Positions 38,517 through 63,262 are shown, counted from the stretch's first letter. The stretch: DNA of 64,000 nt from Spirochaetia bacterium (GCA_965198005.1 CBDAOI010000004.1:320001-384000), one strand, 5' to 3'. Notes: generated by a model not told the origin, from the letters alone. Numbers and translations: made by a program.

Positions 38517-38728
38517 ATTACGCACCGAGAAACAACTAACCGCCCCGGCTGATCGCTCCGTACGCGACCCCGCGCACGCCGTCGCCTTCACCACCGCCGT
38601 AGCTGTCGGTGGTGCCGGCTCGGTCCATCGCCGAACCGGCATGCGGACCGCCCGCGCCCTTCCCGCCGACCGCAACGGTGCCGGATCCCCGCCTGCGACT
38701 AACTGCGAGGGCACCCTGTGCCCCAAGA

Positions 38729-40352: not shown

Positions 40353-40363
40353 AGGAGGTGAAG

Positions 40364-40399
40364 ATGATACTGAAAGAACCGCACGCGCGCGCGGTGTGA
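40364..40399 (+). CDS. putative 11-aa leader peptide MILKEPHARAV
   Basis: SD AGGAGGTGA; four homologous copies in the window. Confidence 0.55.
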   Translation: MILKEPHARAV

Positions 40400-40485
40400 G
40401 CCGGGGTGAACTACGGGCCTGGTTCCCGCTCCCCCTGTGAGTCACCCGCCGCGCGCTTTTCGTGTATTGGACTCAGACTGGCAGA

Positions 40486-40543
40486 GCCCGCGTTGCGGGC
40501 GCGAGAGTAGCCAGGGAGCGCAAGTCGCTCCGCAATACTCTCG
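40486..40543 (+). ncRNA. candidate cis-regulatory two-hairpin RNA motif (copy 1)
   Basis: GCCCGC-GTT-GCGGGC plus CGAGAGTA...GGAGCG/CGCTCC...TACTCTCG just before the SBP3 start. Confidence 0.6.
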
Positions 40544-40567
40544 AAAAATCCACATAGGGAGAAACCT

Positions 40568-42364
40568 ATGAACATTGCAATAATTAGAATGACCTTCGCG
40601 ATTGCGTTGGTCCTGATTCTGAGCGCAACCGGCCTGTGGGCCGCCGGCTCAGAAGAGGAGCCGGCAGCCGCTGCCGACAAGAAGTATGTGACCGACCCCA
40701 CCACCGGCAAAGCGGTGAGCGCGCCAGAGTATGGCGGGACATTGACCTGGGCTGGTGCTTACAATCCTTCGACTACTGATTCCTGGAACTATGGCGGGAC
40801 TGTCGCCACCGCCGGCGTTCTACAGATGCTAGCAATGGCGGACTGGGGAGTGGACAGGAGTGTCTTTAACCTCAAGACCATGTACGTACCTATGTCTCAC
40901 ATGAAAGGGGTGCTGGCGGAAAGCTGGGAGCAGCCCGACGACACAACGATAATCTTCCACATCCGGAAGGGCGTTCACTGGCACAATAAGCCACCGGTGA
41001 ACGGTCGGGAGCTAACTGCCGATGATGTCGTATATAACTGGCACCGTCTATTGGGACTGGGCAAGTTCAGTGAAGCCGGACCTACCCCAGCACATAGATT
41101 CGTAGCGAGATTCGAATCGGTAACGGCCACCGACGATTGGACGGTTGTTTTTAAGCTCGAGAAGCCATCCCTCGCTGGAATGTTTGATATCCTCCTCAAC
41201 TCCCGTGCTGCTATAAACTCCCCCGAGGTAATCGAGGAACACGGTGATGTTGCGGACTGGAGGAACCTGGTCGGCACCGGGCCCTTTATGCTGACTGACT
41301 GGACCGAGGACGTCTCTCTGACCTGGACCAAGAATCCTGACTACTGGGGCTTTGACGAAAAATACCCGGAGAACCGCCTGCCCTATGTTGACGAGACCAT
41401 AGCTCTGATCATGAAAGATGAGGCAACACGAATAGCGGCACTGCGCACGGGTGTGGTCGATGCCCTGGAAAATGCTGGCTCTGCTCAAATAAAATCTATC
41501 GACGCGGCGGAGAGGCTCAAGGAGACCAACCCCGAACTCGTGTTCTGGCCTTTTTCGATTCGGTCGGAGACGTCTGGTGCCTATAACACTACGAAGCCGC
41601 TCTTTGACGACATCAGGGTGCGCCACGCGATGCAGATGGCACTAGACCTCGAGACGATTAACAATACCTACTATAAGGGTTACGCAGATTGGATACCTCA
41701 GGGGATTGTAGGGACAGGCCTTACGGAGTATTTCGTCCCATTTGAAGAGTGGCCTGAAGAGGTCAAGCAATACTATATCTATGACCCGGAAGGGGCAGAA
41801 GCGTTGCTTGATGAGGCTGGATATCCGCGCGGCGCCGACGGCATTAGATTCAAGACCACATTCGAATGCTCGGAAACTCTTGATGTAGGCGGTTTTGAAT
41901 TATTCGCTGGGTACTGGCGTGAGATTGGCGTTGATGTAGAGGTCATGCCACTCGAGAGCGCCACTCATGTGGCTAATATACAGACCCATGCTTATGAAGG
42001 TCTGGTCGGTGTACCGCAGGGCCTCGATTATACCGAACCCCTTGGGGTTTTCAAATCATTTCTTTACACGGATGCGCTATGGAACCAATCGGGGATTAGC
42101 ATCCCGGAACTGGACGCCATGATTGACGCCGCCGGAGCGACTCTGGACATGCAAGAGAAAATCAGGTTGTCTAAAGAGATCAATATGTACGCGTTAGAGA
42201 ACCACTGGTACTTGTGGGGTCCTAGAGTTCCAAACTTTCTGGTGTACCAGCCGTGGATTATAGGTTTCAACGGTGAATATGACTTGGGGGTTAATCAAAG
42301 ATTTGCTAACCTCTTCGCCCGTCTCTGGATTGATAGTGAGCTGAAGAAATCCATGGGTCATTAG
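40568..42364 (+). CDS. family 5 ABC substrate-binding protein (SBP3)
   Basis: Signal peptide LWAAG, PEYGG, LAESW, GTGPF, ARLWID. Confidence 0.93.
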   Translation: MNIAIIRMTFAIALVLILSATGLWAAGSEEEPAAAADKKYVTDPTTGKAVSAPEYGGTLTWAGAYNPSTTDSWNYGGTVATAGVLQMLAMADWGVDRSVFNLKTMYVPMSHMKGVLAESWEQPDDTTIIFHIRKGVHWHNKPPVNGRELTADDVVYNWHRLLGLGKFSEAGPTPAHRFVARFESVTATDDWTVVFKLEKPSLAGMFDILLNSRAAINSPEVIEEHGDVADWRNLVGTGPFMLTDWTEDVSLTWTKNPDYWGFDEKYPENRLPYVDETIALIMKDEATRIAALRTGVVDALENAGSAQIKSIDAAERLKETNPELVFWPFSIRSETSGAYNTTKPLFDDIRVRHAMQMALDLETINNTYYKGYADWIPQGIVGTGLTEYFVPFEEWPEEVKQYYIYDPEGAEALLDEAGYPRGADGIRFKTTFECSETLDVGGFELFAGYWREIGVDVEVMPLESATHVANIQTHAYEGLVGVPQGLDYTEPLGVFKSFLYTDALWNQSGISIPELDAMIDAAGATLDMQEKIRLSKEINMYALENHWYLWGPRVPNFLVYQPWIIGFNGEYDLGVNQRFANLFARLWIDSELKKSMGH

Positions 42365-42588: not shown

Positions 42589-43587
42589 ATGAGAGCCTAT
42601 ATCATCAGGCGGTTATTGCTGATAATCCCCACGCTGTTCATATTGACCATCCTGGTCTTTCTCTCGGTGCGCTTCATCCCCGGCGATGCAATAGACGCAA
42701 TGTTAGGCAGGCTGAGCTACGAGGCTGCCTTCCTTGACCGGGAAGCTCTTGTGCGTATACTGGGATTGGACGTGCCTGCCCACGTGCAGTATGGACGCTG
42801 GCTAGGAGTGTTGCCGACCCCTGACGTTTTTACCGGTGAGTCCCACTTTAAAGGTCTCCTCCAGGGCACCCTTGGCGAATCACTGATGGGCGGTTTTACA
42901 GTAGAGGAGAAGATAATAGCCAGACTGCCGGTAACCATCGAGCTTGGCGTCCTGGCAATCGTGATCGGGCTGATGATAGCCCTGCCGGTCGGCATCTACT
43001 CGGCGATTCGCCAAGATACAGCCGCCGACTACGTGGGGCGCAGCATCGCCATCATCGGCCTGGCAACGCCTAACTTCTGGCTGGCACTTATGGTCATGAT
43101 ATACCCGGCAATCTGGTGGGGCTGGGCGCCACCGATGAAGCTGATTCCTTTCACGGAAGACCCGCTGGGGAATCTCGGGCTGTTCATCATTCCCAGCCTA
43201 ATTCTGGGGACGGCTGCTTCTGCAGCCACCATGCGGATGGCGCGCACCATGATGCTGGAGGTGCTCAGGCAAGACTACATCAGGACTGCCTGGTCAAAGG
43301 GTCTCAACGAGAGGGTAGTTGTTATAAGACACGCCATCAAGAATGCCCTCATCCCGGTAGTTACCCTGGTAGGCCTGCAGTTGCCTATCCTGGTAGGTGG
43401 CTCAGTCATTATCGAGAGCATTTTTAACCTGCCGGGGGCGGGTCGCCTTATGTTAAGCGCACTCCAGGACAGAGACTACCCGGTGATCTCTGGAGTGAAC
43501 CTATTCTTCGCAACCGTGGTTATGGCGAACAATCTATTTATCGACCTGATTTATCCTTATTTGGATCCTCGGGTCCGCTATAGATAA
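42589..43587 (+). CDS. DppB-like ABC permease
   Basis: MRAYIIRR, EVLRQDYIRTA, LDPRVRY. Confidence 0.93.
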   Translation: MRAYIIRRLLLIIPTLFILTILVFLSVRFIPGDAIDAMLGRLSYEAAFLDREALVRILGLDVPAHVQYGRWLGVLPTPDVFTGESHFKGLLQGTLGESLMGGFTVEEKIIARLPVTIELGVLAIVIGLMIALPVGIYSAIRQDTAADYVGRSIAIIGLATPNFWLALMVMIYPAIWWGWAPPMKLIPFTEDPLGNLGLFIIPSLILGTAASAATMRMARTMMLEVLRQDYIRTAWSKGLNERVVVIRHAIKNALIPVVTLVGLQLPILVGGSVIIESIFNLPGAGRLMLSALQDRDYPVISGVNLFFATVVMANNLFIDLIYPYLDPRVRYR

Positions 43588-43605: not shown

Positions 43606-44538
43606 ATGAGTGATGGGAGACCATCAGCAGAAAGTGAGCCAAAGAGACATGCCGGGCCGGCTGGTTTCTTTATCAGACTGGTCAAGGAGAAGCCACTGGG
43701 TACTGCCGGCGGGATTATCATATTGCTCTTGATTCTGGTGGCTATCTTTGCCGATTTTCTGGCTCCTTATCCATATTATGAAGTGCACCCGGCAGACAGG
43801 CTGCAGGGCCCATTCTCATCAGCCCAGTATCTGCTGGGTACCGACCATCTGGGGCGAGACTTCTTAAGCCGCCTTATCTACGGGGCTCGTCTTTCGTTAG
43901 TTGTCGGTCTGGCGGCGACGACGCTGAACGTGGCGGTCGCCGGGCTGATCGGCGGCAGCTCCGGATTCTTCGGCGGCAAACTGGACCTGGCGGTGCAGCG
44001 ATTCGTCGATGCGTGGATGGCGTTCCCGGGACTGCTGCTGTTGTTGACGGTGATGTCGATAGTGGGGCGGGGTATGCTGCAGATAATAGTGGTGCTGGGG
44101 ATAATGGGAGGCATCGCGGGCTCGAGAACGGTCAGAGGCGCTGTTATCGACATAAAGGAGAACACCTATTTTCACGCGGCGGAGTCGATCGGCTCCGCCA
44201 GATGGAGAACATTTGTCCGCCACGTGCTGCCCAATATCGCGCCTGTCGTGATTGTCATCTTCACCATCAACATCGGCGGGGTGATCATCAGTGAGGCGTC
44301 TTTGAGCTTTCTCGGATTCGGTCTGCCGCCGAGCATTCCGAGCTGGGGTGCAATGCTGAGCCGGGAAGGACGTCAGTATATGGAGATTGCGCCATGGCTG
44401 GCTCTCTGGCCTGGCCTTTGCCTGACGATTGTCGTGTACTGTTTTAACATGTTCGGCGACGCGGTGCGGGATCTGCTTGACCCGAGGCTCAGGGGTGGCG
44501 GTGGTGCTCTCGGTGCCGGAGCCGCCGGGTCGGTTTAA
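43606..44538 (+). CDS. DppC-like ABC permease
   Basis: LGTDHLGRD, EASLSFLGFG, GDAVRDLLDPR. Confidence 0.93.
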   Translation: MSDGRPSAESEPKRHAGPAGFFIRLVKEKPLGTAGGIIILLLILVAIFADFLAPYPYYEVHPADRLQGPFSSAQYLLGTDHLGRDFLSRLIYGARLSLVVGLAATTLNVAVAGLIGGSSGFFGGKLDLAVQRFVDAWMAFPGLLLLLTVMSIVGRGMLQIIVVLGIMGGIAGSRTVRGAVIDIKENTYFHAAESIGSARWRTFVRHVLPNIAPVVIVIFTINIGGVIISEASLSFLGFGLPPSIPSWGAMLSREGRQYMEIAPWLALWPGLCLTIVVYCFNMFGDAVRDLLDPRLRGGGGALGAGAAGSV

Positions 44539-46246: not shown

Positions 46247-46349
46247 GTGACCAGCATACATCAACAGCCGCGTCCGCGAACTAGGGGCCTTCGCGCTCCC
46301 TCTGAATCGGCCAATGGGCCCTTTTGCCGGATCACAGGTATCGCCATTT

Positions 46350-47290
46350 CCTATGGTCGGTTACGAAGCCGGTCCAGCTGGCTTTTCACTGTACCGGTTC
46401 CTCACCGAGCTGAATGTGCAGTGCGCGGTGATCGCACCAGGGAGTCTGGTCAGGAGACCGGCGGATCGGGTGAAGACCGATCGACGCGACGCCCGGATGA
46501 TCGCTCATGGGCTGAGGAACGGTGACGTGGATCGTGTGGCCATCCCCACGCCCGAGAACGAGGCGACGCGGGACTTCTTGCGCGCCCGTGACGATCTGCG
46601 TGAAGAGCTCAAGCACTACAAGCAGAGACTCAATCAGCTGCTGCTTCGGCATGGGCTGCAGTACACCGACGGGAGTAAATGGACGCGCGGCCACCGCCAG
46701 TGGATCCAGAACCTGGAGTTCGCGGTCGATCGTCTCAAGCAGACCGCTGAGCTGTACTACTACCGGATCGTTGAGCTCGAGGAGAAGATCTTGCAGATGG
46801 ATCAAGAGATCCAGCAGATCGCGCAGAGCGAACCCTACGCTGAGCCTGTGGGACGGCTCCGCTGCTTCCGCGGCATCGATTGGCTGGTCAATGAGCGCCG
46901 GCGCGGTCAACCCGAGCAGTTCATCGCCTACGCCGATCGCGCCGCTCGCAGGCTCTCCAAGAAGTTCTTTCGTTTGGTGTTCCGCGGCAAGCGCAGCCAA
47001 GTCGCCGTTACCGCGGTCGCTCGTGAGCTGGCCGGATTCGTCTGGGGCGCCATGGTAGGTCAGACCGACGGGATCGAGGCGATCGACGCCGCTTGACCTC
47101 CGGCAACTCATCCCGCGTTCCGGGTACAGCGATGGGCAGAGAACGACAAACGCCGGTGGAGAACCCTCGAGGTAACTATGAGGTGCCACGGGTGGAGGTC
47201 ACCGAGCATCCGGCGTGATACGCGCGGGCTCGCCGCATGCGGTGTGGTGAGGCTCACCGCTTTCCAGACTGGCGCGCGCTCGAACCGTAT
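46350..47290 (+). mobile_element. IS110-family element, internally deleted transposase plus downstream non-coding end
   Basis: YEAGPAGF, VKTDRRDA, GI then a jump to VAVTAVARELAGFVW; GAGAACCCTCG non-coding tail. Confidence 0.8.
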
Positions 47291-47359: not shown

Positions 47360-48052
47360 CTGTTGGCAGGATTGTCGCGCTCGCGAGAGAGTGCACCGTT
47401 CGGGGTTAGCAGAGTCGACGAGTATGAAGTGCCATGATGACAGTCAACGCAGTGGCCAGTGGGCAGTTGGCGGTCACGTTCGGTGATCCGACCTATCCGA
47501 CCTCCGAGTGGTTGACCGGGTGGTCGCGTCCATAGCAAGCTTGCCTCGCTTGGGGTCGGACGGATCGGAGATGAAGCGCCATGACTACGCGCCAGGATGG
47601 CGGCAGCGCAGTGGCCGGTGGCCGATGATGTTCGGTGACGTCCGAGTCGTTGACAGGGTGGCCGCGCCCACGCTATCATGTCTGGCTTGGGGCGACGGAT
47701 GCCGATGAAGCGCCATGATGACGCGCCAGGATGGCGGCAGCGCAGTGGCCGGTTGGCCGTGATGACCTCCGATGGGTTGACAGGGTGGGCCGCGGCCATG
47801 CAAGCTTGCCTCGCTTGGGGTCGGACGGAACGGTGATGACGCGTCATGACGACAGTCAGCGCAGTGGCCGGTTAGCGGTCACGTTCGGTGACCTCCGGGT
47901 CGTTGACAGGTTTCCGGCCGCATGCGACGGTTCACCGCTCCGGGTTGGATGGATGAGGCGCCAGGATGGCATGATGCGACATGACGCGCCAGGATGGCGT
48001 AAGCGCTGTAGCCGGTTGGCGGTGACGCGACCGGTGGATCATACCCCCCCCC
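47360..48052 (+). repeat. leader repeat array (~5 units) ending in TA(C)9
   Basis: TTGAC at 47512, 47650, 47777, 47903; TTGACA-N18-TATCAT at 47650. Confidence 0.9.
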
Positions 48053-48237
48053 TGTACCCAACTTTTCGAACCGAGCAACAACTAACCGCTCCGGCTGATC
48101 GCCCCGTACGCGCCTCCGCGCACCCCGTCCCCTTCACTACCGCCGCATCTGTCCGTGGCGCCGGCTCGGCCATCGCTGAGCCACACCCGAAACAGACAAC
48201 ATCCGTCTCGTGTAACTCACCAAAAGAGGAGGTCAAG

Positions 48238-48273
48238 ATGATACTCAAAGAGCCGCACGTGCGCGCGGCGTGA
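48238..48273 (+). CDS. putative leader peptide MILKEPHVRAA
   Basis: SD GAGGAGGT; two synonymous changes relative to the other copies. Confidence 0.55.
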   Translation: MILKEPHVRAA

Positions 48274-48334
48274 GCCCGGGTGAGCCCGGATGAGTCACAC
48301 GCCGCGCGCTTCAGCCATTTGACTCAAACTGGCC

Positions 48335-48393
48335 GTCTGCGTTGCGGGCGCGAGAGTAGCCAGGGAGCGGCAAGTCGCTCCGCAATACTCTCG
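48335..48393 (+). ncRNA. candidate cis-regulatory RNA motif (copy 2)
   Basis: GTCTGC-GTT-GCGGGC (G-U compatible) plus CGAGAGTA...TACTCTCG. Confidence 0.6.
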
Positions 48394-48416
48394 AAATAAC
48401 ATTCAAGGAAGAAACG

Positions 48417-50213
48417 ATGAAGATATTTTTTGCAAGGACCTTCGCGATTGCGTTGGTCCTGATTCTGAGCGCGACCGGCCTGTGGGCCGCCGGCGCAGAT
48501 GAAGAGGGGTCGGCAGCGGCCGCCGACAAGAAGTATGTGACCGACCCCACCACGGGCAAGGTGGTGACCGCGCCAGAGTACGGCGGGACATTGACCCTCC
48601 CCTATGTCCTAGTAGGCGACACTACTGACCCCTTTGTTACTGGCCACTATGCGGGCTTCATCATAGACGGTGTTAATGAGCAACTCGCCTACGGGGACTG
48701 GGGAATAAATAGGCAAGAATTTGACTTTAGAAACCCTTACCTCCCTGTGTTTGCCTTCACAGGGGCTCTGGCTGAAAGCTGGGCAAGGCCTGACCCACTG
48801 ACTTATATCTTCCACATCCGCAAGGGCGTTCACTGGCACGATAAGGCACCGATGAACGGTAGGGAGCTAAATGCCAACGATGTCGTATATACCTATCAGC
48901 GTAATTTGGCTCTGGGTGACTTCACCAAACGTGCCGAGCAGCCTAGCCAGATTATCGACCTGCCATGGGAATCGATAGAGGCCACCGACAAATATACGGT
49001 TGTTATGAAGTTGACGAAGCCGTCCCTCGGTGCGCTGAGGAGTATCCTCGACGACCCGTTTTTTTCTTGGATATACCCCCCCGAGGTAATCGAGAAATAC
49101 GGCGACTATACGGATTGGAGGAACGTGGTGGGCACCGGACCCATGATGCTGACTGACTATGCCGAAGGCGTCTCCAAAACCTATACCAGGAATCCTGACT
49201 ACTGGGGCTACGACCCAAAATACCCGCAGAACCGACTGCCCTATATTGACCAGTTAAGGTCCCTGTATATGGCAGACGAAGCAACACGTATATCGGCGCT
49301 ACGCACGGGTAAGGTTGATATGCTACATCAAGCCGGCGCCGTTAACATAAGAGCCGTCGACGTGGTAAGGAGCCTCCGGAAGACCAACCCCGAAATCGAG
49401 GTGCACAGTTATTACTCGCGGGCGAGCGGGGTCTTTGGTCTGAACATGCACAAGCCGCCCTTTGACGACGTCAGGGTGCGCCACGCTATGCAGATGGCAC
49501 TGGACCTCGAGACGATTAACGATACCTACTTTGCCGGTTATGGAAGGTGGGAACCTATGGGGGGGATTGCCGTCAAGCCGTATGTCAACACATTTAAAGA
49601 CTTTCCCGAAGGGCTCAAGCAATACTACAGGTATGACCCGGAAGGTGCCGAGAAGCTGCTTGATGAGGCGGGATATCCGCGCGGCGCGGACGGCGTTCGA
49701 CTCAAGGTCAACTATGACCACCGCGACGTGGTAGATTTGGGCTATGCGGAAATAGCTGCCAGCTACTGGGCTGATATAGGTGTTGAGGTAACGACTAATA
49801 TTCTTGACACGGCGACTTGGGTCGCTAATAGAGGAGAACATAACTATGAGATGACCGTTGGTGACTCGGGCTTTTACCTGGCCCCTTCCATATGGGTTAA
49901 CCATTATCGCACGGACGTCCTATTTCTGCGCGAATACGTGGGCGGAGTCCAGACCCCTGAGCTGACCGCCGCCTATGATGCCTTTTTCGCCGCTACCACC
50001 GAGGAGGAGCGGGTGAGGGCATATAAAGAGTATGATATGCTCATTCTAAAGCAGCACAATCAGATATGGGGTCCTATGGCTCCAGGGTTTGAGGTGAACC
50101 AGCCGTGGGTCAAAGGTTTTAACGGTGAATTCTCGATAGGAAACATGCTGTATAATAGCGTCCTCGTCCGCCTTTGGATTGACCAGGATCTGAAGCGAGA
50201 AATGGGCTTCTGA
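48417..50213 (+). CDS. family 5 ABC substrate-binding protein (SBP4)
   Basis: Same motif set as SBP3. Confidence 0.93.
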   Translation: MKIFFARTFAIALVLILSATGLWAAGADEEGSAAAADKKYVTDPTTGKVVTAPEYGGTLTLPYVLVGDTTDPFVTGHYAGFIIDGVNEQLAYGDWGINRQEFDFRNPYLPVFAFTGALAESWARPDPLTYIFHIRKGVHWHDKAPMNGRELNANDVVYTYQRNLALGDFTKRAEQPSQIIDLPWESIEATDKYTVVMKLTKPSLGALRSILDDPFFSWIYPPEVIEKYGDYTDWRNVVGTGPMMLTDYAEGVSKTYTRNPDYWGYDPKYPQNRLPYIDQLRSLYMADEATRISALRTGKVDMLHQAGAVNIRAVDVVRSLRKTNPEIEVHSYYSRASGVFGLNMHKPPFDDVRVRHAMQMALDLETINDTYFAGYGRWEPMGGIAVKPYVNTFKDFPEGLKQYYRYDPEGAEKLLDEAGYPRGADGVRLKVNYDHRDVVDLGYAEIAASYWADIGVEVTTNILDTATWVANRGEHNYEMTVGDSGFYLAPSIWVNHYRTDVLFLREYVGGVQTPELTAAYDAFFAATTEEERVRAYKEYDMLILKQHNQIWGPMAPGFEVNQPWVKGFNGEFSIGNMLYNSVLVRLWIDQDLKREMGF

Positions 50214-50390
50214 GGAAACCGCCTCTGGCGGTTTCCATTGCAGGCGCGCTGGGCGCGCCTGCGCCGACTTGCATTGCAGCAGCGCTCCGCGCGGCTGCTC
50301 CGAATCAACTCGCCCCTTGGGCGATTGAATCAGCCTGTTTGCCCCTCTCACCTCCCAGGGTGGGAGGGGCCGGGTCGCGGTGACTGCGTC

Positions 50391-51344
50391 GTGAGAGCCT
50401 ACATCATCCGGCGGCTGCTGCTGGTCATCCCCACCCTGTTCATCCTGAGCGTGCTGGTATTCCTGTCGGTACGCTTCATCCCCGGCGACGTCATCGACGT
50501 CATGGTCAGTCGTATGGATTTCGGCGGCGCAGTCGACCGGGAGCTCGTAGAACGAAGACTCGGCCTGCACCTGCCGATCCATGTACAGTACGGCCGCTGG
50601 ATCGACGGCATCCTCCTGCGCGGCACCCTCGGCGAGTCGCTGATTGGCGGTTGGCGGATCGAGGAGCGCATGCTGGGACGACTGCCGGTCACCACCGAGC
50701 TCGGGCTGCTGGCCATCTTCATCGGCCTGGTCATCGCACTGCCGGTAGGCATCTACTCGGCGGTGCGCCAGTACACCGCCGCCGACTATCTGGGACGGTC
50801 GGTCGCCATCATGGGGCTGGCGACGCCCAACTTCTGGCTGGGAACGATGGTGATGATCTACCCGGCCATCTGGTGGGCGTGGTCGCCACCGATGGAGCTG
50901 GTCCCGTTCGCCCAGGACCCACTCGGCAACCTCGGCATGTTCCTCATCCCCAGCCTGATCCTGGGCACCTACCTGGCGGCCAGCACCATGCGCATGACGC
51001 GCACCATGATGCTGGAGGTGCTGCGCCAGGACTACATTCGCACGGCCTGGGCCAAGGGTCTGCTGGAGCGGTCGGTGATTCTGCGCCACGCGGTCAAGAA
51101 CGCCATCATCCCGGTGGTGACGCTGGTGGGCATGCAGCTGCCGATTCTGGTGGGCGGCTCGGTCATCATCGAGAACATCTTCAACCTGCCGGGGCTGGGG
51201 CGGCTGATGCTCGACGCGCTCCAGACCCGCGACTACCCGGTGGTGTCGGCGGTGAACCTGTTCTTCGCGACGGTGGTGGTGTTCGTGAACCTGCTGACCG
51301 ATCTGCTGTACGCGTCGCTGGACCCGCGGATTCGCTACGAATGA
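50391..51344 (+). CDS. DppB-like ABC permease
   Basis: GTG start (MRAYIIRR), LDPRIRY. Confidence 0.92.
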   Translation: MRAYIIRRLLLVIPTLFILSVLVFLSVRFIPGDVIDVMVSRMDFGGAVDRELVERRLGLHLPIHVQYGRWIDGILLRGTLGESLIGGWRIEERMLGRLPVTTELGLLAIFIGLVIALPVGIYSAVRQYTAADYLGRSVAIMGLATPNFWLGTMVMIYPAIWWAWSPPMELVPFAQDPLGNLGMFLIPSLILGTYLAASTMRMTRTMMLEVLRQDYIRTAWAKGLLERSVILRHAVKNAIIPVVTLVGMQLPILVGGSVIIENIFNLPGLGRLMLDALQTRDYPVVSAVNLFFATVVVFVNLLTDLLYASLDPRIRYE

Positions 51345-51369: not shown

Positions 51370-51738
51370 ATGGGTGACGTATCACAGCTGACGCCGGCCG
51401 TCGGCGAGCCCGCCGCTGGGGCGGCTGGGCAGGCTGGAGCGCGGCGGTTCTTCGGCCGGCTGCTCCGCGAGCAGCCGTTGGGGACCGCCGGCGGCATCGT
51501 CATCCTGCTCCTGGTGCTGATCAGCATCTTCGCCGATGGGCTGGCGCCCTATCGCTTCGAGGAGATCCACCTGCGCGACCGTCTGCAGGCCCCCTCGGCC
51601 CAGTACCTGCTGGGCACCGACCACGTCGGGCGCGACCTGTTGAGCCGCCTCATCCACGGGGCGCGGCTGTCGCTGACGGTGGGGCTGGCCGCCACGGCGC
51701 TCAACGTCGTGGTGGCGGTGCTGACCAAGGCCACCTGA
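51370..51738 (+). pseudogene. DppC-like permease, 3'-truncated
   Basis: LGTDHVGRD; stops at 122 aa. Confidence 0.85.
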
Positions 51739-52153: not shown

Positions 52154-52774
52154 CTACCGCACTGCAAGGGTGCGGAGAATGTCCTTCATGAGCAGCAGCA
52201 GGTGTAGCTCATCTGTCGGCGAGGGCTCGAACTCCGGGATCAGATGCCGGTAGAAGTCGCTGGCCTCAGAGGTCTCGGCATGGACCAAGAGCCCCCGACA
52301 GCCGATCTCGGTGCCAAGGGCGGCGGTGCGCTTGATTACGTCTTTCAGCATCCCTGCACCCAAACCACGCCGTTCGTGTTGGATACTGACGCCAAGTCGC
52401 GCCAGCAGAGCAACCGGCTGCGGATAACGTCCAGCTCCCTTCCTCAGCCGCTGCGGGGCGGCCTCCACAGCGATGCTTGCCATGCACCATGCGGTAGCGA
52501 AGGGTGAGGCACGCTTCATCAGCTTGCGGAGTCCGGGCAGGTCCCGGGCTTGGCGCTTGTTGATGGCCTCCCAGACCTTGGCAACTTTGGGGGACATGAT
52601 GAACTCGGTGCGATCCGCGAGCACGCGGCGCGCGGCGGTTGTGACGCTGCTCACGACGAACGCAGTGAGATCAGTTCCCACCGCAGCCACGGCTCGGTCG
52701 ATGAGAGCGCGATCCTCTGGCGTTGTCCTGACTTCCAAACGCTCGCTGCAGCGACGGCTCGTGACTGTCAGCAT
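52154..52774 (-). pseudogene. DUF1778 antitoxin fused in frame to an N-terminally deleted GNAT toxin (TacA/TacT-like)
   Basis: ERLEVRTT...LADRTEF...SPF joined to AWCMASI, LLARLGV..HERRGLG, FY. Confidence 0.8.
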
Positions 52775-52800
52775 GTACGGCCAATGTACGTCCTGAGGCG

Positions 52801-53212
52801 TTGACAGGATGGCCGCGTCCATAGCAAGCTTGCCTCGCCTCGGCTTCGACGGATCGATGATGACGCGCCATGACGACAGTCAGCGCAGTGACCGGTTGGC
52901 GGTGACGTTCGGTGACCGCCGAGTCGTTGACAGGCGCGCCGCGCATATGCTAGCGTGCCTCGCCTGGGGCGACGGATGCCGATGAAGCGCCATGATGACA
53001 GTCAGCGCAGTGACGGGTTGCCGGTGACCTTCGCTCACCCCGGTGACCCCCACGAGTCGTTGACGGCGCGCCGCGCCTATGCTAGCGTGCCTCACTTGGG
53101 GTTCGACGGATCGGTGATGAACTGCCATGATGACGCGTCAGGATGGCGTAAGCGCAGTGACCGGTTAGTTGTGACGCAGCCAGTGCATCCTGCTACCCCC
53201 CCCCCCCCCCCC
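52801..53212 (+). repeat. leader repeat array (3 units) ending in TA(C)17
   Basis: TTGAC at 52801, 52927, 53060 (periods 126, 133); near-identical to 38125-38516. Confidence 0.9.
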
Positions 53213-53603
53213 ACTTTTTCGAACCGAGAAACAACTAACCGCTCCGGTTGATCGCCGCGTACGCGACCCCGCGCACGCGGGCGCCTTCACCACCGCCGTA
53301 GCTATAGCTATCGGTTGCGCCGGCTCGGTCCATCGCCAAACCGGCATGCGGACCGGCCACGCCCTTCCCGGCGATCGCAACCGTCCCGGATCCCCGCCCG
53401 CGACTGACTGCCGGCAAAACCCACCGCCGGCGTCGCCAGCCATTCAGACTCGCTGCTTCGCCGACTACGACCCCGCGTGGCGTTGTGACGCAGGTCCCGA
53501 CGTCCGCCGAGCGGTGGGCGTTTGCATGATGGGGCGCGCACGCGGATCCCATGTTACGTCAGCCATCTGGCAGGGCACCATGTGCCCCAAGAAGGAGGTG
53601 AAG

Positions 53604-53639
53604 ATGATACTGAAAGAACCGCACGCGCGCGCGGCGTGA
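53604..53639 (+). CDS. putative leader peptide MILKEPHARAA (intron-free site)
   Basis: Perfect SD AAGGAGGTGA. Confidence 0.55.
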   Translation: MILKEPHARAA

Positions 53640-53716
53640 GCCCGGGTGAACCCGGTGAGTCACACGCCGCGCGCATCACAAATTGACTCAGACTGGCCGT
53701 CCGCGTTGGCGGGCGC

Positions 53717-53775
53717 GCCCGCGTTGCGGGCGTCAGAGTAGCCAGGGAGCGGCAATCCGCTCCGCAATACTCTCG
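53717..53775 (+). ncRNA. candidate cis-regulatory RNA motif (copy 3)
   Basis: GCCCGC-GTT-GCGGGC plus AGAGTA...GGAGCGG/CCGCTCC...TACTCT. Confidence 0.6.
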
Positions 53776-53798
53776 AAATAACATTCAAGGAAGAAACG

Positions 53799-55598
53799 AT
53801 GAAGATATTTTTTGCAAGGACCTTCGCGGTTGCGTTGGTCCTAGTTCTGACCGCAACCGGCCTGTGGGCCGGCGGTGGCACAGAAGACGCACCGGCAACC
53901 GCTGCCGACAAGAAGTATGTGACCGACCCCTCCACCGGCAAGGTGGTGGTGGCGCCACAGTACGGCGGGACATTGACCTTTGCCTGGGCGATCGAGCTAG
54001 CACATGCTGACTGCTATTTCTCCCATGTCCCATGTCTGGCCGTCGGTGGCGTTAATGAGAAGCTAGGAATCATGAACTGGGCAATAGATAGGGATGAATT
54101 TTCCTTTGGAAGCACGTACGACCCTCCATTTACCCTAATACCGCACCTGGCGGAAAGCTGGGATATTTCCCCGGACGGCCTCACCTATACCTTCAACATC
54201 CGTAAGGGCGTTAACTGGCACAATAAGCCACCGATGAACGGTCGGGAGTTTACTGCCGAGGACTTCGTATTTAACTGGCATCGTTATGTGGGTCTGGGCA
54301 GCGGCTACACCGAACCTGCTGCCTATTACGCCTCGGCTCCGCCCGTTGTTCTGCCATACGAATCGGTAACGGCCACCGATAAATATACGGTTGTCGTTAA
54401 GCTGACGGAGCCAGCCCCCAAGGCGCTGGATACTATCCTCGACGGCAACGTCTTTTTTCTATACCCCCCCGAGGTAATCAAGGAACACGGGGACGTTAGG
54501 GATTGGAGGAACCTGGTCGGTACCGGGCCCTATATGCTGACTGACTGGGTGGAGGGCAGCTCTATCACCTATAACAAGAATCCTGACTACTGGAAAAACG
54601 ACGAGAAGTACCCGGAGAATCGTCTGCCCTACATTGACGAGTTGCAGCTCTTTTTCATCAAAGAGGAAGCAACACGTCTGGCGGGACTGCGCGCCGGTAG
54701 GATTGATTTACTGGGTTTCCCTACTGATATCACGTCGGTCGACGAGGTTGATAGCCTCCGGAAGACCAACCCTGAAATCGTGCTGCTCCCGTGGTGGGAC
54801 CGTTCGGAAACGTCTTATGGCATTGACGCAAGCAAGCCGCCCTTTGACGACATCAATGTGCGCAAGGCAATGCAGATGGCATTGGACCTCGAGGGCATTG
54901 ACCGCAGCTTCTACAAGGGCGCCGCATTGTGGCAGCCTCAGGGTATGGTAGGGGAAGCTATCAGCGCGTACCACACCCCATTTGAAGAGTGGCCCGAAGA
55001 GGTCAAGAAGGGCTATATGTACGATCCCGCAGGGGCGGAAGCTTTGCTGGATGAGGCCGGATATCCGCGCGGCGCGGACGGCACTCGATTCAAGACCGTG
55101 TTGAACCATTTCTATCGGTTTGATTTAGGCTATAGTGAATTAGCTGCCACCTACTGGGCGGATATTGGCGTTGATGTGGAGATAAACGTATTGGATGAGG
55201 CTAGTGCTCCCGCTGTTCGAACGGAACGTACTTGGGAAGGTCTGATATCTCACGCTCTGGGCAACAATACTGAGCCAGTGGGGGCTATACGCCGCAATGC
55301 ACACTCGACCGGCGACGATAACTTACACCGAGTCGGGTACCCTGAGTTGGACGCCCTTGTTGAAGCCGCCGAAGCCACTACCTCCATCGAAGAGCAGACG
55401 AGGCTGGTTAAAGAGATAGATATGTACATGATGGAGAACCACTGGTGGGTATGGGGTCCTAAAACTGGAAAGTACATGGCGCACCAGCCGTGGGTCATAG
55501 GTTTTAACGGTGAAGTTTGGCTTACAGTACTGGGCCGAATGGAAGTCTTCGCCCGCCTCTGGATTGATAGTGAGCTAAAGGAGGCAATGGGTCGTTAG
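53799..55598 (+). CDS. family 5 ABC substrate-binding protein (SBP5)
   Basis: Same motif set as SBP3. Confidence 0.93.
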   Translation: MKIFFARTFAVALVLVLTATGLWAGGGTEDAPATAADKKYVTDPSTGKVVVAPQYGGTLTFAWAIELAHADCYFSHVPCLAVGGVNEKLGIMNWAIDRDEFSFGSTYDPPFTLIPHLAESWDISPDGLTYTFNIRKGVNWHNKPPMNGREFTAEDFVFNWHRYVGLGSGYTEPAAYYASAPPVVLPYESVTATDKYTVVVKLTEPAPKALDTILDGNVFFLYPPEVIKEHGDVRDWRNLVGTGPYMLTDWVEGSSITYNKNPDYWKNDEKYPENRLPYIDELQLFFIKEEATRLAGLRAGRIDLLGFPTDITSVDEVDSLRKTNPEIVLLPWWDRSETSYGIDASKPPFDDINVRKAMQMALDLEGIDRSFYKGAALWQPQGMVGEAISAYHTPFEEWPEEVKKGYMYDPAGAEALLDEAGYPRGADGTRFKTVLNHFYRFDLGYSELAATYWADIGVDVEINVLDEASAPAVRTERTWEGLISHALGNNTEPVGAIRRNAHSTGDDNLHRVGYPELDALVEAAEATTSIEEQTRLVKEIDMYMMENHWWVWGPKTGKYMAHQPWVIGFNGEVWLTVLGRMEVFARLWIDSELKEAMGR

Positions 55599-55960
55599 TA
55601 TTTGCTGGTTGGCCGGATCGTACTATAACTGATTTCTCGTCACGCCGACGTGACGAGCCCATACTCACGAGGCGGTGATATGGGCTTAGCCAGGCGGGCA
55701 GCAATTGTGGGATGGCGGGCTTATGCCGCCATCCCACAATTATTGATGCCAATTACGAGCTAGAATTGCTCTTGTTAAATCAATGTATTGAAAAATGGCA
55801 ACTTGTTATTCCGGGCGAAGACCCGGAATCCGGAATACGCAACCCTCTGGACTCCCGCTTTCACGGGAATGACGCGGCTTTCAACCCGTAATTCGCATTA
55901 TGGTAAGAAATCGCCGGGAAGAGATTCAGTGCTAGTCCGAAGAATGATGAGGTGTGTCAC

Positions 55961-56527
55961 ATGAGAGCCTATATCATGAGGCGGTTATTGCTGGTAATTC
56001 CCACCCTGTTTATATTGAGTATCATAGTCTTTCTTTCGGTCCGCTTCATCCCGGGGGATGTGATCGACGTAATGGTGGGAAGGATGAAAGGCTACCTTGT
56101 CGGGGGCGATATTGACCGTGAAGCTGTTGAGCGTATGCTGGGATTAGATGTGCCTGTGTACGTGCAGTATGGACGCTGGATAGGGGATATTTTCCTTCGC
56201 GGCACCCTTGGCGAATCACTGCTTGGCTATTGGTCGGTAGAGGAGAGGATACTAGGTAGATTGCCGGTAACCATTGAGCTCGGTGTCCTGGCAATCATCA
56301 TCGGGCTGGTGATCGCGCTGCCGGTGGGCATCTACTCGGCGATTCGCCAGGATACCGCCGTCGACTACGTGGGGCGCTCCATCGCCATCATCGGCCTGGC
56401 AACCCCTAACTTCTGGCTGGCAATTATGGTCATGCTCTACCCGTCAATCTGGTGGGGCTGGGCGCCACAGATGACGCTGATTCCCTTCGCCGAAGACCCG
56501 TTGGGCAATCTCGGGACGGCATGGTAA
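55961..56527 (+). pseudogene. DppB-like permease, 3'-truncated at a junction near 56515
   Basis: MRAYIMRR...DPLGNLG, then runs into the opposite-strand LLM gene. Confidence 0.85.
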
Positions 56528-60278: not shown

Positions 60279-61124
60279 CAGGAGGTTGCCCTCCAGGTCC
60301 CTGCCGTACTGGCGCTTCCGCCACGTCACCCGGTCCACCCCCGGCGCGGCTTCCCGCTTGAGGCTGAAGTACGCCTCCCGGAGCATCGCGGGGTTGTCGA
60401 CGTGGTGCATGAGCGCGGTGAACCGCAGCGTCCTATCCCGTCGCGCTGCTTGACGTATCCGCTCCAGCGCACTGTGCACGCCATATTGCCGGCGCGGTGT
60501 CCGGGGCGCGTTTTGCTGGCGCGGATTCCCTTTGGCCAGGCCCCTTTCCTCCGCCCGCTCCGCGGCCCGAGGACTACCGGCCGGCGTGGCCGTAGGTGCT
60601 CCCTTGGCTGTGTCCGGCGTTTCCGCCTGCGTGCCCGTGTAGGGTTCACCATAGCCGCGCCGCCTGCGGCAGCTCCCGTCCTTGTTCGCGGGTTTCCCAG
60701 GTACCCCGCAGGGCGGCCGCCAGGCCGGGGGCCTGTCCGACTTCCCAGCTCCGTTCATCGTCGGCGTACGTCCTTGGACTTCCCGACACGGCCTGCGGCG
60801 CCATCCGCCACAGGCGAAGCTGGGATCTCCCGGCTCCCGCGCAAGGTGTTTCCGTACGTGCCCGGGGTCTGTGACCGCGCAGGGTCCCGTGGCGCCTCGC
60901 GATATCGGCGCCCCGAGTGTGGCCTTCCGCGTCCTCCTACAGCGTCGGCACCCCGAAGTAATCTCCTTTCGCGGCTCGATACCCGGCCCGCACGTACCCC
61001 TGTCAACGCTTCACCCCCGCCCTCGCGGGCGACGGCGCATGACTCGGGGCCGCCGTGGGTCGCTAACCCTTCGACGTATGACTCTTTCATTCACAACAAC
61101 CTTGCCGGTTTTTTGCCGGCGCAC
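60279..61124 (-). mobile_element. group II intron 3 (sister of intron 2), 3' part deleted
   Basis: GTGCGCC start at 61124 abutting AGGAGGTG; highly similar to 39538-40352. Confidence 0.9.
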
Positions 61125-61135
61125 AGGAGGTGAAG

Positions 61136-61171
61136 ATGATACTGAAAGAACCGCACGCGCGCGCGGCGTGA
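61136..61171 (+). CDS. putative leader peptide MILKEPHARAA
   Basis: SD AGGAGGTGA; fourth copy. Confidence 0.55.
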   Translation: MILKEPHARAA

Positions 61172-61251
61172 GCCCGGGTGAACCCGGATGAGTCACACGC
61201 CGCGCGCTTCCGAGAACTTGACTCAGACTGGCAGCCCGCTCTGGCGGGCGC

Positions 61252-61440
61252 GCCCGCGTTGCGGGCCCGAGAGTAGCCAGGGAGCGACAACGCGCCCCGC
61301 AATACTCTCGAGATAACATTCAAGGAAGAAACGATGAAGATACTGCGATTTAGGGTTCGAGGTTGTCGCCCCTGTTTCGTCGCCTGCATTGCAGGCGTGA
61401 GAGTAGGCAGGGAGCGGCAAATCGCTAAGCAATACTCTCA
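61252..61440 (+). ncRNA. candidate cis-regulatory RNA motif, tandem copies 4 (61252-61310) and 5 (61381-61440)
   Basis: Copy 5 shows compensatory changes CGCCTGC-ATT-GCAGGCG and TGAGAGTA/TACTCTCA. Confidence 0.65.
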
Positions 61441-61465
61441 AAATGAGCAATAAGGAGAAAAAAGA

Positions 61466-63262
61466 ATGACTATTTCAAGATTCGAAAAAACCTTCGCGGT
61501 TGTACTCGTCCTCATCTTTGCCGCCGGCGCCCTCTGGGCGGCCGGAGCGACCGACCAGCCGACTACCGCGGCCGCCGCTGCAATAAAGTATGTGACGGAC
61601 CCCGCAACCGGCGAAGTGGTGGAGGCCCCACGATATGGCGGGAAACTGACCCATGCGTGGGGTCGGGCCGATTATGATGCAAGTCTTGACGGCTATGATT
61701 ATCATGGTGCGGGAGTTGTTGTCACTGTCGTTTTAGAGAAGCTGGGCATCGCGGACTGGGCAATCGATAGGGACGAAGTCGTTTTTCTGGGCGGCGCCGC
61801 GCGGCCTATGCATGCCTATCGAGGGGCGTTGGCTGAAAGCTGGGACACGCCCGACCCGCTGACGTATATATTCCACATCCGCCAGGGCGTTCACTGGCAT
61901 GATAAGGCACCGATGAACGGTCGGGAACTGACTGCCAAAGATGTCGAATATAACTTTCACCGGCTAACGGGTCTGGGAAGCGGCTTCACAGAACCGACTA
62001 AAGCCCCAGGTATGATTCAAGACGTGCCAATCGAGTCGATAACAGCCACCGACAAATGGACGGTTGTTTTTAAGCTGAAAGAGCCATACCTTAATGCCCC
62101 GATCATTATCCAGGACAATAGCGTTAATTGGATATACCCCCCGGAGGTAATCGAAGAACACGGCGGCTTGACGGATTGGAGGCACTTGGTCGGTACAGGC
62201 CCCTTTGAGCTGACTGACCGCGTCGAGGGTAGCTCCTGGACCTGGACCAAGAATCCTGATTACTGGGGCCACGACGAGAAGTTCCCGGAGAACCGTCTGC
62301 CTTATGTCGACGAGTTCAAGATGGTGACCATGCCAGAGGAAGCGACACGCCTGGCGGCACTGCGCACGGCTAAGATCGATTACGTAGGTATACAGGGGAT
62401 AGCCCATATAAGCAATATCGATTTGGCAGAGAGCCTCAAGCGGACAAATCCCGAGCTCGTGTTCTACCCGTGGGCGGAAAAGTCGGATTATTCTTTCGCT
62501 CTCAACTCGAGTAGGCCGCCCTTTGACGACGTCAGGGTGCGCAAGGCCATGCAGATGGCACTGGACCTTGAGACAATTCACAATACCTTCTTTAAGGGTG
62601 CAGGAGACCCAACACCCAAAGGGCCGGGAGGAAAGCCAGGGTATTTCATCCCGTATGACGAGTGGCCTCAGGAAGTCAAGGATGGTTTTGCTTATAACCC
62701 TAAGGGGGCCGAAAAGCTGCTTGATGAGGCCGGATATCCTCGCGGCTCGGACGGAATTAGATTCACGGTCACGCTTTCCGGGGGGGAAGGGCAGGCGAGC
62801 TTTTATGAGTTGTCCATAGCATACTGGAGTGATATTGGCGTCGATGTGGAGCTTGAGATAACTACGGGTGCCGAACACCATACCTTAGTTAGAGAACAAA
62901 GTCATGACATGATTACTGCGTTATTGGGTACTAAGTGGGATCCACTCTATGCTGCAAGTTTCGTTTACTCGAAACAACCCGATAACAAAGCTGCAGTCAA
63001 TGACCCGGTGTATGACGCCATGTACGAGGCAGCCGGGGACGCCACCTCCTTTGAGCAGCTGAAGGAGATGATAATAGAGATGGATATGTACGTGATAGAG
63101 CATTTCTGGCATATATGGGGTCCTGAGGGCCCATCGTTTACTGTGACCCAGCCATGGGTCAAGGGGTATAACGGCGAAGGCAACTTTGGATGGATGCAGA
63201 TGCAAACCATTTTCTCCCGCCTCTGGGTTGACCAGGAGCTGAAGAAAGCAATGGGTCATTAG
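61466..63262 (+). CDS. family 5 ABC substrate-binding protein (SBP6)
   Basis: SD AAGGAG, signal peptide LWAAG, same motif set as SBP3. Confidence 0.93.
   Translation: MTISRFEKTFAVVLVLIFAAGALWAAGATDQPTTAAAAAIKYVTDPATGEVVEAPRYGGKLTHAWGRADYDASLDGYDYHGAGVVVTVVLEKLGIADWAIDRDEVVFLGGAARPMHAYRGALAESWDTPDPLTYIFHIRQGVHWHDKAPMNGRELTAKDVEYNFHRLTGLGSGFTEPTKAPGMIQDVPIESITATDKWTVVFKLKEPYLNAPIIIQDNSVNWIYPPEVIEEHGGLTDWRHLVGTGPFELTDRVEGSSWTWTKNPDYWGHDEKFPENRLPYVDEFKMVTMPEEATRLAALRTAKIDYVGIQGIAHISNIDLAESLKRTNPELVFYPWAEKSDYSFALNSSRPPFDDVRVRKAMQMALDLETIHNTFFKGAGDPTPKGPGGKPGYFIPYDEWPQEVKDGFAYNPKGAEKLLDEAGYPRGSDGIRFTVTLSGGEGQASFYELSIAYWSDIGVDVELEITTGAEHHTLVREQSHDMITALLGTKWDPLYAASFVYSKQPDNKAAVNDPVYDAMYEAAGDATSFEQLKEMIIEMDMYVIEHFWHIWGPEGPSFTVTQPWVKGYNGEGNFGWMQMQTIFSRLWVDQELKKAMGH

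Follow-up and report, generated by a model that had tools for sequence, protein, structure and literature searches.

A Predicted Translated, Structured 5′ Leader RNA in Front of Opp/Dpp-Type ABC Importer Operons of a Spirochaetia Sponge Symbiont

The two hairpins that recur upstream of binding-protein genes in the window (the whole stretch of DNA that was analysed, 64,000 nucleotides of Spirochaetia bacterium, GCA_965198005.1 CBDAOI010000004.1:320001-384000) are the 3′ module of a leader of about 200 nt, called here the type-1 leader. We propose, with a probability of roughly 0.6, that this is a translated, structured 5′ leader RNA common to a large family of Opp/Dpp-type ABC importer operons and that it acts by translation-coupled cis-regulation. 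It is probably a shared on/off device for about 75 uptake operons, rather than a classic tandem riboswitch. By Rfam and the literature searched it is a new RNA element, a genus-restricted form of the uORF-coupled structured leader. A preliminary description of the window had seen in the hairpins a riboswitch-like cis-regulatory RNA. The results support the general part of that claim, a structured sense-strand cis-regulatory RNA that lies 5′ of transporter genes and has no Rfam family.

Two Recurring Hairpins in the Window

The preliminary description listed five copies of the motif and all five were found, with hairpin 1 at 40486-40500, 48335-48349, 53717-53731, 61252-61266 and 61382-61396 and hairpin 2 directly 3′ of it in each copy. 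Hairpin 1 has 6-7 bp. Hairpin 2, which follows immediately, consists of an outer stem (C/U)GAGAGUA/UACUCUC(G/A), an internal loop GCCAG/GCAA and an inner stem-loop. The five copies fold as the two predicted hairpins, with energies between -29.3 and -35.2 kcal/mol and z between -3.7 and -4.7, at most one of 200 shuffles being equally good; the antisense fold of one copy has a z of -1.6. The hairpin variants quoted earlier (GCCTGC/GCAGGC, GUCUGC/GCGGGC and UGAGAGUA/UACUCUCA) are all present, and the internal-loop bases, which had been called invariant, are nearly so, GCCAG being matched in 113-117 of about 118 leaders. Covariation at the outermost C/U-G/A pair of hairpin 2 did not hold up, as by eye several copies pair CGAGAGUA with UCUCAA (C.A) or UGAGAGUA with UCUCGA (U.G). 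Each copy had also been placed 23-25 nt before a binding-protein start codon. For the two copies counted (start codons at 40568 and 48417) the distance from the end of hairpin 2 to the start codon is indeed 23-24 nt, but the copy at 61252 fronts only a stump of 39 codons (61335-61454).

A search of the window with the Rfam 15 covariance models returned at gathering score only three matches, all to group II introns (RF02005). At E ≤ 10 the leader gave only noise, with a best weak match of 17.2 bits against a cut-off of 88. The suggested likeness to the Mn2+-sensing yybP-ykoY family finds no backing here: the family is absent from the matches both at gathering score and at E ≤ 10 (61080-61500 and 48180-48450). 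Other readings of the hairpins were tried and rejected. ANTAR targets are defined by two hairpins with hexaloops that carry A1 and G4, and the loops here are GUU and CAAU/GCAAGU. The internal loop misfits in sequence the consensus of K-turns, loop E and CsrA sites. For an anti-SD role of the 3′ arm of hairpin 2, the SD variants GGAG, GGAAG, GGAU and GGAC were compared by eye and lose the complementarity.

Architecture of the Type-1 Leader

The elements of the type-1 leader follow each other in the order SD, uORF (MILKEP...), S0 stem, box, hairpin 1, hairpin 2, and the SD and AUG of the gene. Using nhmmer, 81 copies were found in the 4.9-Mb genome (G000, 66% G+C), far above chance. Almost every copy carries the SD and uORF (ATGATACTCAAAGAACCG...), S0, a variable linker and the box UUGACUCAGACUGGC (in short GACUC..CUGGC) 5′ of the hairpins. 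Hairpin 2 is followed by a variable A/C-rich spacer, an SD and the start codon, and this start codon lies inside a stem of at least 4 bp in 43 of the 74 distinct spacers, against 21% of shuffles. Hairpin 1 occurs zero, one or two times per leader. The hairpin that caps S0 is variable, with a 21-nt insert in some copies.

The reference copy spans 48225-48416 (+), from the uORF SD to the last base before the binding-protein start; it is matched by R1, the covariance model of the whole type-1 leader, at 48210-48430 (230 bits), and its MFE fold has a z of -3.2. Its predicted uORF (48238-48273, +) has 11 codons and a stop, MILKEPHVRAA*, with the SD GGAGG upstream. S0 (48261-48309, +) is a 12-bp all-GC stem, GCGCGCGGCGUG/CACGCCGCGCGC, with a variable hairpin cap. 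The stop codon UGA of the uORF lies in its 5′ arm, and across copies S0 is near-invariant with 98-99% of its cells paired. The box (48318-48333, +) reads UUUGACUCAAACUGGC, and its CUGGC (48329-48333) is the 5′ strand of a long-range helix, Px. Hairpin 1 (48335-48349, +) is predicted by folding as GUCUGC-GUU-GCGGGC and has U.G and U-A variants. Hairpin 2 (48351-48393, +) is likewise predicted by folding, with the outer stem CGAGAGUA/UACUCUCG, the loop GCCAG (48359-48363) that provides the 3′ strand of Px, the inner stem-loop and GCAA.

Copy 1 (40353-40567, +; R1 match 40336-40581, 199 bits) has its uORF at 40364-40399, S0 at 40387-40456 with the 21-nt insert in the cap, hairpin 1 at 40486-40500 and hairpin 2 at 40502-40543. 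Copy 3 (53593-53798, +; R1 match 53576-53812, 220 bits) has its uORF at 53604-53639 and a duplicated hairpin 1, the second one at 53717-53731, before hairpin 2 at 53733-53775. The two remaining copies lie close together. Copy 4A (61125-61334, +; R1 match 61108-61347, 206 bits) is complete, with the uORF at 61136-61171, hairpin 1 at 61252-61266 and hairpin 2 at 61268-61310. Copy 4B (61382-61440, +; nhmmer E 1.2e-23) is partial, with hairpin 1 at 61382-61396 and hairpin 2 at 61398-61440 and without uORF, S0 or box.

Downstream Genes and the Double Locus

In 77 of the 81 copies the leader is directly followed by a same-strand ORF matching SBP_bac_5, of which 64 encode 585-652 aa and 13 are truncated. 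These genes head Opp/Dpp-type ABC operons, and the proteins behind type-1 leaders share 28-67% identity. In the window the SBP_bac_5 gene at 40568-42364 (+; PF00496, E 5.6e-68) is followed by two permease genes (42589-43587 and 43606-44538; PF00528, PF12911). The gene at 48417-50213 (+), with HbpA, OppA and DppA as nearest solved proteins (E 1e-25 to 1e-21), precedes a permease (50238-51344) and a truncated OppC-like ORF (51370-51738). The two others were identified with Pfam, at 53799-55598 (+) with a truncated permease ORF behind it (55952-56527) and at 61466-63262 (+) with a permease from 63579 onward. Pfam E-values for SBP_bac_5 in the window are around 1e-68, and the NCBIfam matches are all far below the equivalog cut-offs. 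The genome contains about 153 near-full-length and 52 partial SBP_bac_5 loci, and 75 of the near-full-length ones carry the type-1 leader. As a side observation, this expansion is unusually large for 4.9 Mb, and many of the genes and permeases are truncated.

The two neighboring copies at 61252-61440 had been read as a tandem arrangement. This locus is a rearrangement, made of a full leader, a gene stump and a partial leader, and a recombination product of this kind is not a pair of tandem aptamers. The stump (61335-61454, +; 39 codons) begins with the 9 nt that start the genes at 48417 and 53799, continues with unrelated sequence and has no SBP match. It reads through copy 4B and stops at a UAA 11 nt before the real start. 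Two complete aptamers in series, as in tandem riboswitches, do not recur, since copy 4B is partial and the stump intervenes. Two other irregular loci in the genome have partly duplicated leader sequence and all remaining copies are single. Solitary uORF/S0 modules, fused to unrelated sequence or lying in the middle of an SBP gene, were seen at C1:43555, C3:782740, C3:676518 and C4:462180 of G000; they are remnants of deletion or rearrangement at leaders.

The uORF

Codon variation among 111 distinct leaders (G000 and five other genomes) indicates that the uORF is selected at the peptide level. The start is ATG in 101 of them, and codons 3-6 (LKEP) have 71 synonymous and 6 non-synonymous variants, which are counts of sequences and not of independent events. 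Codon 3 is CTC in 81 leaders, CTG in 27 and another codon in 3; codon 4 is AAA in 106, AAG in 3 and another in 2; and codon 5 is GAA in 87, GAG in 23 and GAC in one. Codon 6 encodes proline in 111 of 111 leaders, using all four proline codons (CCG 93, CCT 9, CCC 6, CCA 3). Codon 7 is free, with CAC (His) in 76 leaders, the stop TAG in 16 and TAC (Tyr) in 10. The conserved product is MILKEP, and the continuation HARAA corresponds to the S0 arm. At the sequence level the uORF thus has the SD and the start codon of a leader-peptide attenuator. A cluster of regulatory codons for a sensed amino acid was not found, no codon being repeated in MILKEPHARAA.

Pairing Within Type 1 and the Long-Range Helix

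Two type-1 alignments were compared, A3 with 80 copies from G000 and A4 with 46 copies from other genomes, and in both 93.7% of helix cells pair. Double changes were counted in 20 of 2683 cells in A3 (shuffles 6.4±2.1) and in 14 of 1696 cells in A4 (shuffles 5.1±2.0), and in neither case did any of 500 shuffles reach the observed number. The frequent changes that are tolerated are mostly G.U on the sense strand, with 98 cells against 34 for A.C in A3 and 77 against 24 in A4. Frequent G.U changes occur at two pairs of hairpin 1 and at the loop-closing pair of hairpin 2, and roughly one copy in three has G.A at one inner-stem pair. Pairing is therefore well kept in type 1, and variation is too scarce for more than weak covariation within the type. 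This weakness follows from the exchange of leaders and signal peptides between paralogs, which deprives the copies of independence. With a MAFFT alignment, mutual information was swamped by subfamily signal, and RNAalifold on the same gappy alignment was uninformative.

In Px, the CUGGC of the box and the GCCAG of the hairpin 2 loop are paired in 578 of 589 cells (98.1%); there are 7 wobble variants, about 10 disruptive ones and no double changes. An alternative helix between the box and UGAGUCA is 97.1% complementary, with 2 double changes among about 35 variant rows. S0, Px and this alternative helix are near-invariant in type 1, and their rare variants are mostly uncompensated. Since Px and the outer stem of hairpin 2 interleave (a-b-a′-b′), they are predicted to make an H-type pseudoknot in which both helices would form simultaneously and which would leave about 24 nt between its 3′ end and the start codon. 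Neither the pseudoknot nor the upstream half of the leader, with uORF, S0 and box, had been noticed in the preliminary description.

Related Leader Types

The covariation proposed in the preliminary description is sparse within the type-1 leader, but it is clear for hairpin 1 and the outer stem of hairpin 2 when sister types are compared, and both are real RNA helices. There are 64 family members that have an N-terminus and lack the type-1 leader, and 28 of these carry a related leader. The uORFs of the sister types encode MQPKTGYD and variants or, in type 3, read ATG CAG AAC TGA or ATG TAG. The equivalent of hairpin 1 is variable in sequence and length, and an unrelated single strand stands in place of the inner hairpin. 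The outer stem GAGAGnn/nnCUCUC and a CGGCA(G/A)U motif are common to all leader types. Px in the sister types joins an upstream CCCUCGC to GCGAGGG just inside hairpin 2; the type-1 Px is homologous to it, with a C-G to G-C flip. A type-2 leader of the same genome, at a locus 1.27 Mb away, has the uORF MQPKTGYD and is without S0 and box.

Cross-type alignments made with MAFFT (A5, A6) were misregistered and we therefore used A7, which was aligned with a second covariance model, R2, and holds 65 sister copies from seven genomes with the pseudoknot added. A7 misplaces the 3′ arm of four type-5 rows and the 5′ arm of five rows with an inserted hairpin, so that its pair counts are conservative. In A7, 92.0% of cells are paired, against 88.8±0.3 in shuffles, and double changes occupy 59 cells against 26.7±3.8, a number reached in 0 of 500 shuffles. 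The covariation score of 0.165 was also not reached in 500 shuffles (0.115), and with slid partners it is at most 0.081. In the outer stem of hairpin 2, pair 6 is UA in 43 rows, CG in 10 and UG in 3, and pair 7 is AU in 30, GC in 20 and GU in 3. Px is 96.7% paired, one of its pairs being CG in 48 rows, UG in 8 and UA in 2. A regex count agrees with this picture, and from an unfitted alignment RNAalifold recovers hairpin 1 together with the hairpin 2 outer stem. Across the sister types the structure is thus backed by covariation, as is generally asked of a riboswitch. Rfam searched at E ≤ 1 gave no match for eight sister-type leaders.

In the type-3 leaders of G000 the strand that contains the stop of the three-codon uORF is complementary to the 3′ interior of hairpin 2 and could pair with it, and this pairing is not kept in the type-3 copies of genome G001. 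SD-led mini uORFs with one to three sense codons, including the start-stop ATG TAG, were seen in several type-3 leaders (L134, L138, L146, L154, L172-L178 and others). Between their uORF and the structured domain, type-2 leaders, in the region of G000 C2:761977 and at the locus 1.27 Mb away, contain long poly-C or poly-G runs, with as many as about 20 C, as well as short tandem repeats, GACACGACCAAGACACGAC.

A Proposed Mechanism and Competing Readings

A ribosome that finishes or pauses on the uORF would have to open S0. The freed 3′ strand of S0, UGAGUCA, could then pair with UGACUCA of the box and withdraw CUGGC from Px. Occupancy of the uORF would in this way toggle the domain between pseudoknot and plain hairpins and set the translation or the stability of the operon mRNA. 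When the end of the uORF was blocked in folding, all three window leaders tested were predicted to refold to the pairing of UGAGUCA with UGACUCA..CUGG of the box. The direction is a guess: slow translation of the uORF during starvation may break the pseudoknot and turn uptake on. A protein or a small ligand may additionally bind the invariant loop.

About half of the roughly 150 family-5 binding-protein loci have the type-1 leader and at least 28 more have sister types. The element would rank among the largest single-motif cis-regulons of bacteria, in an uncultured sponge symbiont whose niche involves the uptake of host- or seawater-derived compounds. The leader types form a natural series with a constant outer stem and with differences in uORF peptide, long-range helix and loop content, and the link between uORF translation and pseudoknot is therefore directly testable with reporters.

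A more far-reaching reading, which we regard as unlikely though worth stating, is that the pseudoknot of hairpin 1 and Px/hairpin 2 serves as the sensor in a regulatory RNA of a new class, either as a riboswitch that responds to a global signal or as the place where a dedicated regulator binds, and that it is gated by translation of the type-specific, arrest-like uORF peptides MILKEP.., MxPKTGYD and MQN. If this were true, more than 100 nutrient-uptake operons per genome would be under one switch, and recombination of the leader heads would let the symbiont rewire which transporters respond.

That the pseudoknot is a small-molecule aptamer, for an alarmone-like global signal or a common peptide-derived compound, with uORF and S0 as expression platform or second input, seems improbable to us. 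The compact pseudoknot with its covarying helices and near-invariant unpaired GCCAG, GCAA and CGGCA(G/A)U would fit a metabolite riboswitch, as would its position beside the ribosome site of functionally coherent genes and its lack of an Rfam match. There is also reported precedent for the interplay of riboswitches and uORFs, in mycobacterial leaders (PMC11260477). However, one nearly identical element stands in front of about 75 binding proteins with presumably different substrates, and because these proteins are only 28-67% identical a metabolite riboswitch is less likely than a leader that senses translation or a factor. Moreover, the putative pocket is not conserved, given the swap of the inner hairpin for an unrelated single strand in the sister types, the element was found in one genus only, and the tandem copy is a rearrangement.

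We also have strong doubts that hairpin 2 and its invariant loop are the site of one RNA-binding protein or small RNA that controls the regulon in trans. In enterobacteria, the small RNA GcvB controls the mRNAs of binding proteins. The stem sequences of the leader are conserved beyond the needs of pairing and its loops are invariant, and the outer stem GAGAG../..CUCUC is kept in all leader types, as a shared binding site would be. On the other hand, a search of the genome outside the leaders, on both strands and with at most one mismatch, gave 0 matches for the 5′ half of hairpin 2, two for the box and six for the 3′ half of hairpin 2. No candidate protein was identified, and such a regulator leaves the uORF and S0 unexplained.

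Comparison With Known Systems

Leader-peptide attenuators and stalling leaders include the trp/his type, tnaC-tna, mgtL and ermC. Like these, the type-1 leader has a short SD-led uORF with an end that overlaps a strong helix, and the position of the ribosome is predicted to select one of two exclusive pairings. It departs from them in that regulatory codons do not occur in a row, about 150 nt separate the uORF from the gene, the output module takes the form of a pseudoknot at the ribosome site, and a single device serves about 75 operons per genome. It also has no U-tract terminator: as a canonical terminator S0 would need a T-rich tail, and at least five T in the 8 nt after S0 were found in only 9 of 122 leaders. 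No terminator-like site was found on the + strand of the two leaders scanned. The alternation of an intrinsic terminator with an antiterminator, which defines attenuators, was thus not found, though an alternative pairing is predicted.

H-type pseudoknots occur in the SAM-II and preQ1-II riboswitches and in ribosomal-protein operators. The type-1 leader resembles these in its two interleaved helices, a hairpin embedded in a loop and its place directly 5′ of the SD. It differs from them in that no sequence or model match exists and the loop content differs between leader types. In Borrelia, the upstream homology box and erp-type families are promoter or operator DNA of plasmid-borne lipoprotein genes. 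These too are spirochaete paralogs with a near-identical upstream region and signal peptide, diverged mature proteins and recombination, whereas the type-1 leader is a structured RNA leader with a predicted uORF in front of chromosomal ABC operons.

The combination of a structured RNA with a short uORF has a parallel in the metE and ppe2 leaders of Mycobacterium tuberculosis, where a riboswitch and short translated uORFs are reported to modulate the downstream gene (PMC11260477). As described there, the aptamer of those leaders belongs to the known B12 class and the uORFs lie within the domain or are coupled to the start, whereas the type-1 leader has no Rfam family and its uORF is upstream of the structured domain. 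Bacterial leaders with SD-led uORFs are also described for Sinorhizobium meliloti, where uORFs and uRBSs are reported to alter main-ORF expression by translational coupling or occlusion of the RBS (PMC13285730). Those uORFs act at close range, whereas among the leaders studied here only the rearranged ORF at 61335-61454 ends near the main start (11 nt).

Distribution and Transcription Signals

Among the genomes searched, the type-1 leader appears confined to one Spirochaetia genus. Of 10 further genomes of the genus, 7 have R1 matches, and none of 30 genomes from elsewhere does. With stricter filters, R2 found its target in 3 of 4 sampled members of the genus and in none of the 146 genomes that represent 86 other genera of the class. 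The public records in which exact matches occur bear the title “MAG: Spirochaetia bacterium”. A complete type-1 leader (L030) was also seen on a 4-kb contig from a MAG with the label Acidobacteriota, for which a binning error is the simplest explanation. Pattern matches in two genomes of a sister genus (L007, L008) and in a betaproteobacterial record (L044) were rejected as chance, with no leader around them. In the literature on binding-protein expansions of sponge spirochaetes and on uORF, pseudoknot and ABC leaders we found no description of the element.

The stretch 47500-50300 is present, whole or in part, in 20 of 22 listed public runs, 11 of which are recorded as RNA. Contigs from four sponge metatranscriptome studies match the gene exactly, where DNA carry-over into such assemblies is possible. 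Some contigs from RNA libraries extend upstream past the uORF SD into paralog-specific sequence. These data are assembled contigs of a leader that is repeated about 80 times, so that depth is summed over paralogs and starts and strand are not readable from them.

A scan of two leaders, each with about 300 nt of upstream sequence, gave no sigma-70-like promoter. A sigma-54 reading of CUGG..UUGC was rejected, since by our own count the spacing is GG-N11-GC and not N10. At 12 leaders a group II intron lies antisense between any upstream promoter and the uORF, and for most of these the downstream ORF looks intact; a promoter inside the leader therefore fits better than one further upstream. Given the introns at the uORF SD and the lack of a sigma-70-like site, the position of the promoter is the main point against the model of translation-coupled regulation.

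These intron insertions would also agree with a DNA-level element, in which the box (TTGACT..) and the palindromes are promoter or operator and the hairpins incidental. TTGACT resembles a -35 hexamer, and the palindromic sites TGAGTCA and TGACTCA lie about 28 bp from each other. We nevertheless consider this very unlikely. Firstly, the hexamer has no -10 partner, and the sigma-54 spacing is off by one. Secondly, no fixed spacing is kept, because the box and hairpin 2 can have no hairpin 1, one or two of them in between. Lastly, G.U is tolerated on the sense strand only, and the variation of the uORF is codon-periodic.

Head Exchange and Group II Introns

The identity of leaders from uORF to hairpin 2 is about 88% regardless of how far the genes have diverged. 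Its median is 89.9% for 17 pairs with coding sequences 90-100% identical, against 87.5% for 5958 pairs without detectable nucleotide similarity. Orthologs from different genomes differ in leader, ribosome site and N-terminus although their mature coding sequences are about 98% identical (L120 versus L025, L091 versus L033), the 5′ module having been exchanged by recombination inside the conserved region of the signal peptide. Third codon positions of the signal peptide vary about threefold less (0.128) than those just downstream (0.345). These comparisons suggest that leader and signal peptide form a recombining “head” that is swapped between paralogs. Recombination can mimic purifying selection in repeat-rich leaders. 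Because much of the leader conservation reflects recombination, it is not by itself functional evidence; the evidence is the filtered variation. Elsewhere in the genome there are further leaders that are chimeric or truncated.

One lineage of group II introns appears to use the leader as homing site. The 5′ part of such an intron lies antisense at 40094-40352 (-; RF02005, 185.9 bits) and ends exactly at the uORF SD of copy 1 (GGCGCAC|AGGAGG), with the RT ORF at 38536-39987. A second copy of the same intron occupies the same site of leader 4A (60865-61124, -; RF02005, 181.1 bits). By comparison of coordinates by eye, 12 of the 37 RF02005 matches in G000 abut leaders, those ending at 40352 and 61124 included, and the same junction is present in 6 of 46 leaders of other genomes.

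Least probable of all is that the leader has no regulatory role and is a homogenised recombination tract or a mobile REP- or MITE-like cassette travelling with the gene family: the swapped heads, the reduced synonymous variation in the signal peptide, the chimeric and truncated leaders and the homing intron would agree with it, but position and orientation are fixed in 77 of 81 copies, directly 5′ of an SBP_bac_5 ORF on the same strand, which also speaks against the REP element named as an alternative in the preliminary description, the variation has passed a filter (synonymous changes in the uORF, G.U changes in helices and compensatory ones between types), and neither terminal repeats nor a transposase accompany the leader.

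Beside the 3′ end of the intron at copy 1, two to three direct repeats of about 120 nt (..gatgacagtcagcgcagtgac..gcgccgcgcctatgctagcgtgcctc..) were seen by eye at 38200-38480. Two other elements lie near the transporter operons, a fragment of an IS110-family transposase at 46314-47096 (+) and a tyrosine recombinase gene at 35959-36966 (-). The ORF at 52154-52822 (-), of 222 aa, has a TacA-like antitoxin domain (E 1.3e-15) and a weak match to GNAT acetyltransferases, and may be a fused or adjacent TacAT-type module.
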